A DNA stretch of 33,348 nucleotides from Microcystaceae cyanobacterium (lineage in GTDB: Bacteria; Cyanobacteriota; Cyanobacteriia; Cyanobacteriales; Microcystaceae): NCBI GenBank assembly GCA_041746575.1, contig JBGTGT010000090.1, positions 1 through 33,348 on the forward strand, given 5' to 3'. This document shows, piece by piece, positions 10,411-33,348 of the stretch. Below the pieces are notes generated by a model. The model made no database searches, was not told the origin of the DNA, and saw nothing but the letters and a program-made list of their open reading frames with translations. Within the stretch, counting starts at the first letter, position 1; every line of letters begins with the position of its first letter. The position numbers and the translations under genes are program-made.

Positions 10411-12153
10411 TTATTTCAAAATTTCTTCTAATTGATGTTGTTGCCATAACGATTGATACAATCCCGCTTGGTGCAGTAACTGCTCGTGAGTGCCTATCTG
10501 GACAATTTCTCCTTTATCCATCACAAAAATGCGATCGGCTTTAGCGGCGGCCGATAATTGATGGGAAATGAAAATAACGGTTTTTCCTCGTTCACTCGAT
10601 AAATTCTCTAAAATTTCCGTGGCGGTTTGGTTATCAACACTGGATAAAGCATCATCCAAAATTAACACAGGCGCATCGACTAATAATGCTCTTGCTAAAG
10701 CAGTTCGTTGCCGTTGTCCACCTGATAGCGTAATACCCCGTTCTCCGACTAAGGTTTCATAGTCTTGAGGAAAATTAATGATTTCGGCATGAATTTGCGC
10801 TTTTTTGGCGGCATACTCTATTTCAGAAGATTCATTGAGGGGATCACCGTAGCGAATATTATTCTTAATCGAGGTACTGAATAAAAAGCTATCCTGAGGT
10901 ACGTAGGCGATCGCTTTTCTCAATTGGCTTAAGGGAATCTGGATGATATCTTTCCCGCCAAAAAAGACTTGATTAGAGTTAATATCCAATAAATGGGGTA
11001 AAATATTCGCCAAAGTTGATTTACCTGCTCCAATCGTTCCAACAATGGCGACGGTTTCCTGAGGCTGAATCGTAAAATGAAGATTTTTTAAAGCGGGGAT
11101 TTTCGCGTCGGGATAGGTATAAGTTAAGCCTTTAGCCGTAATTTCGCCTTTTGTTAATTCTTCTAATAAAATAGGTCGAGAACTGTCTTTAATGGCTGGT
11201 TTAACGCTAAAAATCGATTCAACCCGATCGACACTTACTTCACCCCGTTGATAGGCGGTAATGGTAAATCCTAATAAAGCAGTCGGAAAAACAAGGCGTT
11301 CAACTAATAATAATAAAGCGACAAAATCTCCTATGGTAATTACTCCGTTACGAATTGAACGGATGCCAAGCATTAATAAAATAAGTAAACTGAGGTAGGA
11401 TAATCCCTCGATGACGGGAAATAAAAAATTACGAGTTCGAGCTAATTTTAAATTGGCTTTTAATAAGCGTTGATTTTTCTGAGCAAAGGCTTCTCGTTCT
11501 TGCTCTTCTTGGGCATAAATTTTAATCAAAGAAATGCCACTTATATCTTCTTGAATTAAGTCACTAATATCGGATAATTTTTCTTGAACTTCTGCTTGTT
11601 GATCTCGTAACTTTCCACTGAATAATTGAACGGTAATTAACATTAAAGGGTAAACGGCGATCGCCCCTAGTGTTAGCGGCACACTGATTGCTAACATAAC
11701 AGGTAAAGTTAACCCGTAGGCGAAAATAGTATTCACTAAGCTAAGAACGGCAAAACCCACTAAACGGCGAATATTATCGACATCACTGGTGGCGCGATTA
11801 ATCAAATCTCCGGTTGGATGAAGATTAAAATAAGAGGGTTCAAGCTTTAATAAATGCTCAAAAATACCTTGTTTAAGGGCAAACTCTACCTGACGACCGA
11901 TGCCAAAAATAGAAAGACGAGACAGCATCCGAATAAACCACATTAAACAGGCCAATAGAAAGATTTGCCAGACATAAGGCTGAAGATCTGAAAAGCGAAA
12001 ATCGACTTTTAGGTGGTCAATACTATCACGTAGTAATAAGGGAAGATAAACCCCTAGGCAGTTAACAAGCAGTAAGGCAAAAATGCCGACAATGAGTTGT
12101 TTAGAATAAGGACGTAAATAAAGCCAAAGTTGATGAAGTCTTGAGCGCGCCAT
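10411..12153 (-). CDS. ABC transporter, fused permease/ATP-binding exporter (MdlA/MsbA-like)
   Basis: N-terminal TM domain; Walker A GTIGAGKST, signature LSGGQRQR, Walker B LILDD. Confidence 0.95.
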   Translation of the reverse strand: MARSRLHQLWLYLRPYSKQLIVGIFALLLVNCLGVYLPLLLRDSIDHLKVDFRFSDLQPYVWQIFLLACLMWFIRMLSRLSIFGIGRQVEFALKQGIFEHLLKLEPSYFNLHPTGDLINRATSDVDNIRRLVGFAVLSLVNTIFAYGLTLPVMLAISVPLTLGAIAVYPLMLITVQLFSGKLRDQQAEVQEKLSDISDLIQEDISGISLIKIYAQEEQEREAFAQKNQRLLKANLKLARTRNFLFPVIEGLSYLSLLILLMLGIRSIRNGVITIGDFVALLLLVERLVFPTALLGFTITAYQRGEVSVDRVESIFSVKPAIKDSSRPILLEELTKGEITAKGLTYTYPDAKIPALKNLHFTIQPQETVAIVGTIGAGKSTLANILPHLLDINSNQVFFGGKDIIQIPLSQLRKAIAYVPQDSFLFSTSIKNNIRYGDPLNESSEIEYAAKKAQIHAEIINFPQDYETLVGERGITLSGGQRQRTALARALLVDAPVLILDDALSSVDNQTATEILENLSSERGKTVIFISHQLSAAAKADRIFVMDKGEIVQIGTHEQLLHQAGLYQSLWQQHQLEEILK

Positions 12154-29508: not shown

Positions 29509-30720
29509 TTAACGAGTAATACGCAAGATTCTATCTCTATTCGGCGGACAAGTCCCTCTGCCATCACAATTACTGGTGGTTACATAAAGCTCCTTGTCAG
29601 GACCCATTATTACTTCTCGTAAGCGGCCTAATTCTCCTTGAAAATAAACCTCATGGCTTTGAACACGAGCAGGGTTGTTCGAATCAAAAACCACCCGATG
29701 CAAATGTCTCGCACCTAATGCGCTAATCATAAAATTTCCTTGCCATTCAGGAATAACTTCACCCGTATAAATTGCCGCTCCTCCCGGTGGAACGGCTTCT
29801 TGCCAAGTCAGGGAAGGAGTAATCATTCCTTCTTGGTCTTCGCAAGCGTAAATTGGTGGCCACCCTAAATTATCTCCAGAATTAGCCACACTGATCTCAT
29901 CGTGTCCGCTTCTGCCTAATTCGCCGCTAGGGCCATGATCGCTAATCCAAAGAGTAGAATCATTATACCAATCAAATCCTTGGGTGTTGCGAATTCCCAT
30001 GATAAAGACGGGATCATCCGGAAAAGGATTATCGGCTGGCACTTCCCCTTCGGGAGTCACCCGCAGAATCTTTCCCGCTAAACTTTTAATATCTTGAGCT
30101 TCACTCGGTTCTCTAGCATCTCCTGTCCCAATATAGAGCATTCCATCGGGGCCAAAACGCAACCGACCTCCATTGTGAAAGCGTGCAACTGGAATATTAT
30201 TGACGATAATGCGCTCTGGTTCTGCACTGCGATTATTTTCCGAGAGTTGCCAGCGTTCTACCCGATTTACCAGCGAGCCATTCTCCTGAGTCGTATAGTA
30301 AATATAAAAGAGGCGATTGCTCTCAAAGTCAGGATGAGCGGCAATTCCTAATAATCCCCCTTCCCCTTGTGAGGCGACATTAACCGTGGCAATGGTGGCT
30401 AATTGTCCATTTTTTACTAAACGAATGCGTCCAGGACGTTCGGTGACCAACATTTCAGTCTCAGAAATAAAGAGAATTCCCCACGGAACTTCTAACCCAT
30501 TAACGACTTCTTCTGCTCGTACCTGAACGTGTCCTTGAGGGCCAAAACCTTCCTGTACATAAAGACAAGTATGATTATTGGTCTCTACTCTCTCTGCGGC
30601 TAAACTGGGTGAGGATTGGGAATTAACGGTATCGGATGAAGAGGATGAGGAATGACATGCCATCAATCCTACAGCAATCAATAGAGCAGTAACAAAAGAA
30701 TTCAGGAATTTCATGAGCAA
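29509..30720 (-). CDS. PQQ-dependent sugar dehydrogenase (glucose/sorbosone dehydrogenase family) lipoprotein
   Basis: Lipobox LMAC; GLEVPWG, TERPGR, GEGGLLG, HNGGRLRFGPDG, GIRNTQG, DHGP, GRLR. Confidence 0.92.
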   Translation of the reverse strand: MLMKFLNSFVTALLIAVGLMACHSSSSSSDTVNSQSSPSLAAERVETNNHTCLYVQEGFGPQGHVQVRAEEVVNGLEVPWGILFISETEMLVTERPGRIRLVKNGQLATIATVNVASQGEGGLLGIAAHPDFESNRLFYIYYTTQENGSLVNRVERWQLSENNRSAEPERIIVNNIPVARFHNGGRLRFGPDGMLYIGTGDAREPSEAQDIKSLAGKILRVTPEGEVPADNPFPDDPVFIMGIRNTQGFDWYNDSTLWISDHGPSGELGRSGHDEISVANSGDNLGWPPIYACEDQEGMITPSLTWQEAVPPGGAAIYTGEVIPEWQGNFMISALGARHLHRVVFDSNNPARVQSHEVYFQGELGRLREVIMGPDKELYVTTSNCDGRGTCPPNRDRILRITR

Positions 30721-30929: not shown

Positions 30930-31344
30930 TTATGGCTGTGCTTGAAGCTGAGAGACTAACCGTTGGCGCAGTTCGCTGGGTAGTAATACTCTATTAATGG
31001 CGTGAATAACGCCGTTGTCTGCCTGAATGTTAGCATAGACCACCTAGCATTATTGACAATTACTCTATCCGACTGAGTTAAGATAGAAACTCCACCCCCA
31101 AGGGTATCCACATTCCCTGTTGATAGCTCACTGGCAGTTACTTCTGCAGGAACAACGTGATAAGTTAGGACTTGCCTTGCTTAAGCAAATCTTTGTTCTC
31201 AGGCTGAAGCAACTATTCTAAGGCACCATCAGGTAGCTCGTTGAAGGCTTCATCGGTTGGGGCAAAAACAGTGTAAGGCCCTCCAGAAGCTAGCGTATTT
31301 TTGAGACCTGCGGCTTCTATCTCCTTGACTAGGGTATCAAATTC
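30930..31344 (-). pseudogene. Fasciclin (FAS1) domain gene, 5'-truncated and decayed
   Basis: [43 protein letters not shown]..(shift)VLTYHVVP..(shift)..DNGVIHAINRVLLP; stop at 31213-31215 and frameshifts near 31175 and 31043; homology begins abruptly at ~31344. Confidence 0.9.
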
Positions 31345-31385
31345 ACTCTAATCGATTCAAGGTACATACTGCCATAAGGACAAAA

Positions 31386-31420
31386 TAAAACCCTGAAACG
31401 CTTCTGAATTCAGGGTTTTA
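31386..31420 (-). terminator. Hairpin downstream of the IS110 ORF (terminator-like, within the element right end)
   Basis: TAAAACCCTGAA ... TTCAGGGTTTTA 12-bp stem followed by a T-rich tract on the minus strand. Confidence 0.55.
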
Positions 31421-31441
31421 GCGATTTATACTAGATTTAAG

Positions 31442-32689
31442 CTACAAACAGTATTGCTTTAACTCACGATATAAAAGGCGGGTTTCGTAGAAAAGTAAGC
31501 GACATATTCCATCTTTACCTAATGATTGGAAAGAAGGATGCTTAACAACTTCTAGCTTCTTTTTATGTCGGTTGTCGTAGGATGTCACTTCTCGTTCTCG
31601 TTCGTTAAACCATGCGTCTTTGAGTTCAGCAACAATTGCCGTTTGCGGCGGTCTTCGTCTCATACAAATAGTAACTAGTGCGTGTGCGTATAAATGACTC
31701 CGTACAATATCAGAACCTGACCAAGACTTCTTAATCTTGTTATCCTTGGCGGAAGTATCTCCAGATTTCTCGTAAGTAAAACCTAACCCTAAGAAGTGTT
31801 GAAACTGTCTCAATGATTGATCATGGCCATTTTTGCGATAAGGTTTTCCCTCAATCATAAAACGGTCAAAAGGATAACAATGAAGCAATAATAGGCTTTT
31901 CAAGACGATTCCATATTGAAAATTATCAAATACAGGATCATAGTTATTAAATTCTTTGATGATCTGGTTCAGATTTCTCTCTCTTTCTAAGATTCTCAAA
32001 GAATCTCTGACAATATCCTCTGCTAGGTCTTTAGAATAATGGTTTATTCCCGTTCCTATGGTAAAGTTTGGGAATCTTCGGTTAACAGTTTTACCTAGAA
32101 TATGCCCTAAAGTCGGGTTAACTCCATTTTTCCCAATATTTAAGAAGTTACGTTTAGCGATTTCGGGGTGTTCTCGTTCTAGGCGTTGCCTTAGTTGATT
32201 TATAAGGATATTTCGGTGCTTACAGATTTGTTCTCTTTCGTAAAATATATCCCTTACTTCATTAATTTTGTCATGGTTATATCTGAGCAGTAACGGCGGT
32301 CTGTCGTGTTCATCGTATCCTGTCTTAGCAAAATACATCATAGCAATGGTAAAAGCATCACTAGCATCGTCTTTATTTTTAAATTTGTAGTGTTTACGGT
32401 GCCATTTGACCGATTGATGGCTAACCCATCCAATTTCTATATCTAGCTTCTTGGCCTGATCGACCCAAAATTGAGAATACCAGTAACCTGTCGGCTCTAG
32501 GATAATCATCTTCGGCGCAAGTTCTGCCAAAAGCGCTAAACCTTCAGCGTTGTTGTTAAACCTATGTAGGTTTTTCTTCTTCAATTTCTCAAAAAGATTT
32601 ATGGGGGCGGTTTCTCCGTCGTACTCTTCTAGTAGAAAACCGACAGCAAAATTACGGCTTATATCTAAGCCTAAAACACGTTTTTTCAT
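31442..32689 (-). CDS. IS110-family DEDD recombinase/transposase
   Basis: RuvC-like motifs VLGLDIS, LEPTG, KDDASDA; coiled linker; C-terminal FLGLG...EKSGD with the catalytic-type serine; ORF intact. Confidence 0.9.
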   Translation of the reverse strand: MKKRVLGLDISRNFAVGFLLEEYDGETAPINLFEKLKKKNLHRFNNNAEGLALLAELAPKMIILEPTGYWYSQFWVDQAKKLDIEIGWVSHQSVKWHRKHYKFKNKDDASDAFTIAMMYFAKTGYDEHDRPPLLLRYNHDKINEVRDIFYEREQICKHRNILINQLRQRLEREHPEIAKRNFLNIGKNGVNPTLGHILGKTVNRRFPNFTIGTGINHYSKDLAEDIVRDSLRILERERNLNQIIKEFNNYDPVFDNFQYGIVLKSLLLLHCYPFDRFMIEGKPYRKNGHDQSLRQFQHFLGLGFTYEKSGDTSAKDNKIKKSWSGSDIVRSHLYAHALVTICMRRRPPQTAIVAELKDAWFNEREREVTSYDNRHKKKLEVVKHPSFQSLGKDGICRLLFYETRLLYRELKQYCL

Positions 32690-32720: not shown

Positions 32721-32890
32721 CCGTCAATGCCTTACGAAACTCCCGTAAGTATTCCTCTTACTTCACTCTAGAAGGCTATAGACGGTAAAAAAGCACCTAA
32801 TTAGCCTTACGAATGGTTTGCAAGCTATAAATAGCTTGATTTCTTTGTAAAAGGCAGTCTAGGACTAGGATAGGGTTTGGAAGCCTATCC
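32721..32890 (-). ncRNA. Bridge-RNA-like ncRNA of the IS110 element
   Basis: 5' hairpin (32868-32890), then two internal-loop modules (32804-32855; 32721-32785), each closed by GCCUU/AAGGC with a central hairpin between two single-stranded guides. Confidence 0.85.
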
Positions 32891-33095
32891 CCTTAGTCTC
32901 TCAATTCAATTGAGTTAAGAGACTAAGGGGGTGGGTTTCATTTGTTGAGATAAAGTATTGCCATCCTCCTTAAGTAATTCAATTTTTGTCTGTGTCATCT
33001 TTTTTTATCGATGTAGAATGAGAACATCATACAAAAAAAACGCCAAAAGCAATACTTTTTGTATGTAAATTTCTCTTAATATTTGAGGTTTAGGT

Positions 33096-33260
33096 ATGGT
33101 AGGTCGTAAAGGTGCTTCGGGTCGTCGTTTTGGCGTTCGCTCATTAAAAGTCAGAAAAATCCAAAGTAATATTACTATGACTCCAGAAGCTTGGGCTATA
33201 TTAGCTAAAAATGCTTACTTTTTAGCTCACCGCAGAGAAGCCCCGCGCTGTACCCGATAG
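33096..33260 (+). pseudogene. Small basic CopG/ribbon-helix-helix-like gene, probably interrupted at ~33225-33230
   Basis: MVGRKGASGRRFGVRSLKVRKIQSNITMTPEAWAILAKNAYFL then reads into the IS end; GAGG RBS. Confidence 0.45.
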
Positions 33261-33348
33261 GGTCAGCGTCGGGATGAAAGGCGGGTCATCGGTACTCCGG
33301 CTTGGAAAGCCGAGGCTTCCTCTGACTTCGTCAATTGAGGGGTTCAAT
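33226..33348 (+). mobile_element. IS200/IS605-family element end (runs off window)
   Basis: GAGAAGCCCCGCGCTGTACCCGATAGGGTCAGCGTCGGGATGAA subterminal imperfect hairpin typical of cyanobacterial IS200/IS605 ends; abrupt GC rise; second hairpin CGGCTTGGAAAGCCG. Confidence 0.65.

Follow-up and report, generated by a model that had tools for sequence, protein, structure and literature searches.

Where, to the base, did an IS110-family element join host DNA in the fasciclin (FAS1) gene of a hot-spring cyanobacterium, and can that place be read from the guide RNA encoded beside the recombinase? The initial annotation had put the right end of such an element inside the gene, at TAGAGTGAA. The window analyzed here comprises positions 1-33,348 of contig JBGTGT010000090.1 and is called C90; other contigs of the same genome are given as C-numbers and other genomes as G-numbers. 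The genome is a metagenome bin from hot-spring cyanobacteria, and its contigs could derive from different strains. The features discussed below are collected in Table 1.

TABLE 1 Features at and around the right end of the element in the window
Feature	Position	Strand	Basis or remark
Fasciclin (FAS1) pseudogene, 3' fragment	30933..31341	-	Pfam Fasciclin on three pieces, tblastn
Core dinucleotide AA, right junction (most likely core)	31342..31343	-	GAA at positions 8-10 of both 5' loop sides
Non-coding right end of element	31344..31441	-	Identical (C46) or 80% alike (C38) in other copies
Left donor TAGAGTG	31344-31350	-	Right end of element
TTGAAT hexamer	31355-31360	-	Within right end
Recombinase terminator hairpin	31382-31419	-	Within right end
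IS110-family (DEDD) recombinase, 415 aa, intact ORF	31442..32689	-	Pfam, PHROG
Second (donor) loop	32721..32785	-	Consensus fold of three homologous elements
Second loop, 3' side GGGAGTTTCGT	32734-32744	-	
Second loop, 5' side CTAGAGTGAA	32762-32771	-	Contains left donor guide
First (target-binding) loop	32804..32855	-	Consensus fold
First loop, 3' side CAAACCATTCGT	32809-32820	-	Reverse complement ACGAATGGTTTG
First loop, 5' side TTACAAAGAAAT	32839-32850	-	
Left target guide TACAAAGAA	32841-32849	-	Matches C89 TACGAAGAA 8/9
Two hairpins upstream of loops	32868..32930	-	MFE fold
Small upstream hairpin, CCAAAC in loop	32868-32890	-	
Large upstream hairpin	32889-32930	-	
81 bp shared with C66:1837-1917 at 100%	32880..32960	-	BLAST
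Phage-like module	32961..33207		DNA alignment to C66
Degenerate small ORF, ATG at 32998	in 32961..33207	-	Divergent promoter region beside
5' part of gene like C66 116-aa ORF	33096-33207	+	tblastn, 50% identity over 42 aa
End of TnpB (IS605-family OrfB) element, closes contig	33208..33348		Pfam OrfB_IS605, Cas12f1-like_TNB

The right end of the element

The minus strand reads ..GAT TAG AGT GAA TTT GAT ACC CTA across the boundary, exactly as annotated. The nine bases of TAGAGTGAA at this boundary (31350..31342, minus strand) are identical at 9/9 positions to the left guide in the second loop of the upstream RNA (32770..32762, minus strand). Only two matches to TAGAGTGAA occur in the 33,348-base window, compared with a mean of 0.18 in shuffled sequence, and two or more matches were reached in 0 of 100 shuffles. 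The flank GAAT was also correctly related to the first loop, being the reverse complement of ATTC in its 3' side (32820..32809).

The annotation further held that FAS1 homology starts at GAA. This is true of the Pfam Fasciclin match, which starts at the E encoded by GAA and places profile position 2 on residue 2 of SEFDTLV (E 1.8e-11), while tblastn with the closest intact relative as the query gave identity from the F onward. Such a start proves no junction by itself, because the Pfam model begins at that very residue. With high confidence, we regard the observation as confirmed and the right junction as secure on the strength of other element copies, which stop at exactly this base. When the element was compared with its own genome by BLAST, two further right ends were found, one on C46 (9554-9608, 100% identical over 55 bp) and one on C38 (505-592, 80% identical). 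The comparison of ends that had been proposed gave a uniform result, since 3/3 right ends in the genome have ...ATCGATTAGAGTGAA and then diverge; the next bases are T, T, and A, followed by unrelated sequence. In an alignment read by eye, the likeness of the C38 copy appears to reach the 3' end of the recombinase. A 617-nt contig from run X4 combines 283 nt of element DNA (recombinase 3' end and right end, as far as 31341) with 334 following nt unlike the fasciclin flank; that sample may contain a complete copy inserted elsewhere. The fasciclin junction itself is spanned by a 151-nt contig from a different study.

TAGAGT or AGT in an intact ortholog was to be taken as a sign of host sequence; intact relatives instead read AAC AGC AAT CAA TTT GAT, with neither motif. 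The proposed core, (G)AA, gains support from the left junction on C89 (see below), which also ends G-AA. In every 5' loop side, a G at position 8 precedes AA (AT in G081), and TTC is present in the 3' sides of both loops. The G at 31344, before the core, is conserved in all guides of the recombinase subfamily. The exchanged core is most likely the dinucleotide AA.

The two remnants differ in their surroundings. The C46 remnant (locus L045) directly precedes the start codon of cas1, which is followed by cas2. Its flank, TGGTTTT, matches the right target guide of the window element at 6/7 positions, and this looks like the cognate site of a copy that later lost most of its length. The C38 remnant (C38:460-592, locus L004) lies between a likely tRNA gene, recognized by eye, and an ORF of 434 aa, and is flanked by AA/AGGGAAATC. 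No further copy of the element was found by a recombinase protein search of this genome's contigs, and a search for the right-end pattern in the contigs of the genome and the metagenome yielded no additional one. A promoter and terminator scan was uninformative (5 promoter-like sites versus 4.9 expected).

Recombinase

The recombinase ORF is open, as had been claimed. Its RuvC-like DEDD domain was recognized by Pfam (DEDD_Tnp_IS110, 30.9 bits versus a cutoff of 29); Transposase_20 reached 15.1 bits, below its cutoff of 21.3, and the transposase family PHROG 2199 matched at E 6.9e-12. E65, D108, D111, and S309 are invariant in six relatives. So is the pair S309-G310, which a weak profile hit to the ISCro4 transposase (E 0.14) places on the SG of that protein; the E and DxxD motifs are aligned in this hit as well. 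S309 is the candidate for the catalytic serine of a C-terminal Tnp domain. D9 is seen in the motif GLDIS and is absent from the list of invariant residues; one of the six sequences starts later, at its first M. E65, D108, D111, and D9 are presumably the catalytic residues, by analogy with IS621.

A PDB sequence search with the recombinase (phmmer) gave no hit, the profile search giving only the hit at E 0.14, and a phage collection contained no match to the recombinase or to the Rep protein of C66. The best recombinase match was 52% identical in 61 relatives and 53-57% identical in 401 genomes of the order. Three related copies in G401 and G081 (loci L037, L038, and L039) begin at query residue 151-152, one in a complete genome and two at contig ends; this start may be a common internal truncation point, or the result of assembly breaks.

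Bridge RNA and its guides

Two units, each made of a stem (GCCTT/AAGGC), an internal loop, and a hairpin, lie upstream of the recombinase. When the window element was folded with its homologs from G030 (52% amino acid identity) and G081 (53%), RNAalifold returned the two-loop architecture, with conserved stems, variable loop sides, and compensatory changes in 3/20 pairs. Between two G081 copies that are 93% alike, the first loop differs throughout both sides and the second by one base, as would be expected if the first binds the target and the second the donor. The layout of the two hairpins farther upstream is repeated on C66 and in the G081 copies, where the small stem contains a compensatory change. 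No Rfam family matches the bridge-RNA region or those of its relatives. A hammerhead-like CUGAUGA...GAAAC upstream of the G030 loops, likewise with no Rfam match, is therefore unsupported.

In the available part of Durrant et al. (2024, PMC11208160), the published bridge-RNA rule includes the core in all four pairings. Under this rule, the identity of TAGAGTGAA is that of the left donor guide with the element's own right end plus core. The same identity is found at 9/9 positions in the window, 10/10 in G030, 8/8 in G081, and 8/8 in the C66 element. The predicted right donor is G-AA-ACTCCC, for which there are three candidates, ACCCAC (4/6), ACCCTA (3/6), and TCTCTT (3/6, or 5/6 if G-T pairs are counted), and these are not separable by pairing counts. 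At the validated G030 junction, ACCCCA agrees with the predicted right donor at 4/6 positions. The predicted full target site is TTACAAAG-AA-TGGTTTG.

The interrupted gene and the probable left junction

The fasciclin fragment in the window covers Pfam profile positions 2-55, 55-99, and 103-123 in three frames, and tblastn with the intact relative L017 gave 75-81% identity in frames -1, -3, and -2. The three further lesions of the host gene that had been reported are present, namely an in-frame TAG at 31215-31213 and frameshifts near 31177-31180 and 31043-31046. Downstream of the pseudogene, a 403-aa ORF with a signal-peptide-like N terminus (29509-30720, minus strand) appears intact. The closest intact fasciclin relatives are those of G034 and G073 (80% amino acid identity). 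The same-genus genomes G001 and G002 are without the locus, and there is therefore no close empty site for the fasciclin gene. Among the Logan contigs aligned to the window, neither an empty site nor a circle joint (right end to left end) was found.

The DNA beside the left side of the element is not fasciclin. The 5' fragment of the gene lies on C89 (11123-11320), where a tblastn query made of the first 66 residues of the intact relative hit 11123-11269 (E 5e-8), the genome's only hit at E≤0.01. The ORF on C89 ends ...GAA GAA ACC CCT ACG AAG AA/T CTC TTT TTG CTG TAA, the slash marking the junction. The left target had been predicted as TACAAA-GAA, which was nearly right: the gene fragment on C89 ends TACGAAGAA (TACGAAG-AA), a match of 8/9 to TACAAAGAA. 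Sites with at most one mismatch to the left target guide number 1,533 on both strands of the 4.2-Mb genome, a rate of 1.8e-4 per base per strand, which corresponds to about 0.004 for a 21-base window at the break. The target prediction was largely right and essentially borne out. The right target guide TGGTTTG, by comparison, agrees with the window flank TTTGATA at only 2/7 positions beyond the core. A left match of 8/9 with a right match of 2/7 fits a half-match rather than a full match.

The expectation that the joined gene stays in frame was not upheld. When ...ACG AAG AA is joined to TTT GAT, the 5' ORF is left one base off the FAS1 frame. Moreover, N-[IL]-V-x-x-A-x-x-x-x precedes F-x-T-L in 5/5 intact relatives and is in neither fragment here, and about nine conserved codons are missing between the two gene halves.

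Related elements with empty sites

Two related elements could be compared with uninterrupted target sites. The first occupies C66:1-8884 (8.9 kb) and contains Rep_trans, a Zot-like ORF, small ORFs, and a recombinase at its end; on the right it runs on into C123, and C66:8884 marks the opposite end. It splits a DUF347 gene into halves with two repeats each, which join in frame as W Y L N E/K T L A M H. The corresponding empty site in G005 is an uninterrupted DUF347 gene reading W Y L S E K T L A M H. Between the left flank, TTAAACG-AA, and the guide TTAAATG-AA there is one mismatch; the right flank, AAGACAT, matches at 4/7. The first inside bases, TGACCCA, match the right donor guide at 6/7, and the guide AGTAGGAA matches the element's own right end.

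The second element, G030:C120:34009-46247 (12.2 kb), has its recombinase and RNA at the right end. Its empty site in G016, a sister species of G030, reads ...TACAATAGAA AACTAGCC... and lies between a membrane-protein gene and thrC. On the left, the element is flanked by TACAATAG-AA (guide TTCAATAG-AA); the right flank ATTTAGC matches the right target guide at 5/7, and the left donor guide is TTAGATAGAA. In G030, GAAATTTAG occurs twice (locus L010, 1228-1237 and 2811-2820): one copy closes the last cargo ORF, some 90 nt ahead of the loops, and the other comprises the core and right flank at the right junction.

Three copies in G081 and one in G401 have right ends that stop at GTAAAGTGAT, with the guide TAAAGTGA. 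The DNA upstream of the loops in G081 is repeated with the element on another contig; this DNA was not found in 11/12 other genomes of the genus, and G012 had only a 26-base match. Judging from these sequences, in every relative with a judgeable upstream side the unit is several kilobases long, with the recombinase/RNA module at its right end, as has been reported for the filamentous proviruses of Neisseria (Nf) and Thermus and for expanded IS110 loci. Four G028 copies (35% identity), which have far-upstream DNA in common and end TAGAATAAA, are too distant to help.

The inserted DNA

A simple 1.5-kb IS inside the gene is not supported by the neighboring DNA. Positions 32880-33207 of the window are homologous to a module of the C66 element, and the gene fragment on C89 precedes a Rep_trans gene. 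The part of C66 identical to the window over 81 bp lies upstream of a second IS110-like recombinase (27% amino acid identity), which has its own two-loop RNA and borders the module on its other side. The Logan unitig depth of 32880-32960 is 71.7, versus 26-30 for the neighboring pieces. The small ORF and promoter region beyond it are, by eye, roughly 80-85% alike in C66. There, the module is followed by the 116-aa ORF, the adjoining Rep_trans gene, a 201-aa ORF, small membrane ORFs, the Zot-like ATPase, and a pilin-like ORF.

On C89, TACGAAG-AA is followed by 240 AT-rich bases, a Rep_trans gene, and a 184-aa ORF that is cut by the TnpB element at the contig end and to which the C66 201-aa ORF is 41% identical. 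Both rolling-circle Rep genes match PF02486 (E 3.5e-15 on C89, 1.2e-15 on C66), a family also used by plasmids. The Zot-like ORF of C66 is recognized by PHROG (E 2.4e-4) and by an Atlas feature score of 0.97 to Zot clusters. By its gene content, the C66 set would be inovirus-like. A tblastn search with its Zot-like ORF revealed no second copy in the genome, and none for the element bordering the window.

In the C66 element, a stretch of 83 nt between AAATG-AA and AA-TGACCAAC consists of the shared hairpins and 26 further bases (C66:1812-1917), and may represent a miniature element that entered at a left junction. AA-TGACCAAC is a perfect match to the right donor guide of the C66 element, and a guide of that element matches AAATGAAAC at 9/9 positions inside the shared 81 bp.

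The TnpB element cuts the 116-aa-like phage gene in the window. The end of it that closes the window is common to C91, and its other end is common to the ends of C89 and C88; a full copy of about 1.5 kb is present at C55:17431-18961. C90 and C91 have 14 more bases in common at the TnpB end than the C55 copy. A link from C89 through the TnpB element to C90 would be the economical reading, but this repeat also terminates C88 and C91. In four relatives, the 1.5 kb on either side of the hemH-like gene of C91 did not contain the SbcD-like gene of C88, and synteny thus favored no pairing of the contig ends. Relative to the recombinase, the Rep gene points the other way from its counterpart in C66, which calls for either an inversion or a cointegrate route in which the IS right junction served as a half-matched donor.

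Weighing the explanations

The account that we consider probable combines the end of a bridge-RNA element, a guide-directed hit in the fasciclin gene, and a larger, phage-like insert. Positions 31342-31350 are the right end, made of the left donor TAGAGTG and the core AA, of a mobile element that is presumably moved by the IS110-family recombinase and the bridge RNA 5' of it, with its two internal loops (32721-32855). Recombination directed by the guide, matching mainly the left half of the target, would have struck the fasciclin gene. The inserted DNA was probably a larger, inovirus-like element, now degraded, whose right end carries the recombinase and bridge RNA. The Rep_trans gene and the following ORF on C89 and the module at 32880-33207 would be its parts. 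We infer this from two relatives that were validated by empty sites. The TnpB element would have inserted later into the phage-like element, and the host gene would have decayed afterwards (one stop, two frameshifts, halves out of frame, and about nine codons gone). Against the account, TCTCTT after the C89 junction matches the right donor at only 3/6, two internal sites match as well or better, the right target half is matched at 2/7, and the gene halves are out of frame with about nine conserved codons missing. The reversed direction of the Rep gene, the lack of any match in the phage collection, the repeat common to the ends of C88 and C91, and a possible mixture of strains in the bin also speak against it.

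The two internal sites lead to another explanation, in which only a minimal IS of about 1.5-1.6 kb moved, with its left end at AA/ACCCACC (32936) or AA/ACCCTATCC (32876), inside or joined to a phage-like replicon. Either a cointegrate of phage and IS entered the gene, with the IS right junction as a half-matched donor, or a later guide-directed inversion or deletion brought the 5' gene fragment beside the Rep region. Both sites follow AA and begin with ACCC, like the validated ACCCCA of G030, whose right donor guide is the same. C66 has, besides its distal site, the perfect right-donor match AA-TGACCAAC 15 nt before its first loop, and the 9/9 match of its left guide to AAATGAAAC lies in the shared 81 bp. 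With the left end at 32876, a circle would place TTGAAT, 17 nt, and TATCCT across the junction, although this promoter-like match is only 8/12. That left end (TTGAAT-N17-TATCCT) was ranked lowest of the candidates, as it would cut the small hairpin, which is conserved and covaries in the G081 copies. In those copies, moreover, homology runs upstream into an ORF, which makes for a larger unit in G081. Neither internal site has a left flank that matches the left target guide, and no second copy or solo minimal element was found in the genome. We judge a minimal IS unlikely, while giving it some weight.

Two further explanations dispute the junctions themselves. If the match on C89 to the left target guide were due to chance, an unrelated rearrangement, involving the TnpB element or phage recombination, would have broken the gene, and the right junction alone would be a product of the recombinase. 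The missing nine or so codons and the differing frames would then be accounted for, the contig ends do lie in repeats, and the K-N-L at the end of the C89 ORF resembles the N-N-L of relatives, which would move the break 4-6 bases past AA. By our estimate, however, N-[ILV] would follow AA by chance about 1 time in 10, whereas a match with at most one mismatch in the 21-base window has a chance of only about 0.004, and the same one-mismatch pattern stands exactly at the left junctions of the two validated relatives. This explanation is improbable. It is hardly credible that TAGAGTGAA at 31342-31350 is host sequence and its identity with the loop a coincidence. The last five right-end codons, I D stop S E, do give 4/5 positives against V N S N Q, but the same bases end the C46 and C38 copies beside unrelated flanks, relatives read AGC AAT CAA at the place of TAGAGTGAA, and the excess of this 9-mer over expectation was noted above. 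As an observation on the last 15 element bases (31342-31356, minus strand), their conservative likeness to the intact relative may be fortuitous, or may reflect microhomology that aided a secondary deletion.

Comparison with known systems

Bridge-RNA IS110 elements, expanded IS110 loci, and IS110-type transposases in filamentous prophages are already known. A literature search found no publication that joins the terms "bridge RNA," "filamentous phage," and "IS110." Tentatively, and with rather less than even confidence, we propose that the bridge-RNA module serves as the integrase of small phage-like replicons (the C66 element, C89/C90, and the 12-kb G030 element). The target loop would pick the attachment site, a match to the left half would suffice, and the donor loop would recognize the element's own junction. 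If so, changing a few bases of RNA would be enough to redirect where an entire phage attaches, the internal sites that match the right donor almost perfectly would allow exit as a minimal IS, and phage integration modules would be linked directly, in evolution, to IS110 insertion sequences. Guides read from raw DNA here predict both junctions, including a left junction assembled on another contig. Natural left-half targets with one mismatch and weak right halves, two of them with empty sites, bear on the off-target rules of bridge editors. Should the phage link hold, filamentous prophage integration by IS110-type transposases would receive an explanation at the level of guides, and the arrangement would be extended to hot-spring cyanobacteria.

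As far as IS621 is described in the available part of PMC11208160, the window element resembles it in three respects: a DEDD recombinase is preceded by a non-coding RNA with two internal loops, the 3' side of a loop is predicted to pair with the right half-site plus core, and the donor loop is constant while the target loop varies between copies. In contrast to IS621, the recombinase is distant, the AA core follows a conserved G, there are two extra hairpins upstream, the RNA has no Rfam match, and the moved unit appears to be several kilobases long.

Half-match insertion, in which only half of the target is matched, is described for IS621 in the accessible text of the preprint by Xie et al. 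(2026). The preprint by Hu et al. (2026), in the part available, describes expanded, cargo-bearing IS110 loci, part of whose boundaries match guides. Like those loci, the unit here would be large, bounded by guide-matching junctions, and loaded with plasmid- or phage-derived cargo. Unlike the loci in that part of Hu et al., whose supplements may list such cases, its cargo would be an inovirus-like replicon (Rep_trans, with a Zot-like gene on C66), and no resistance genes were seen.

The closest likeness in gene order is to filamentous prophages. According to the portions available of the respective papers, the Nf/MDA prophages of Neisseria (PMC7058167) and the filamentous prophages phiOH16 and Zuza8 of Thermus (PMC11437467) have an IS110-family transposase at one end and a replication gene at the other. 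At 8.9 kb, the C66 element can be likened to these prophages in size, within what those portions report. If C89 and C90 are linked, the insertion in the fasciclin gene has the same arrangement, with Rep beside one junction and the recombinase beside the other. The passages around IS110 in those two accounts describe no guide RNA, whereas here the guides can be read against both junctions.
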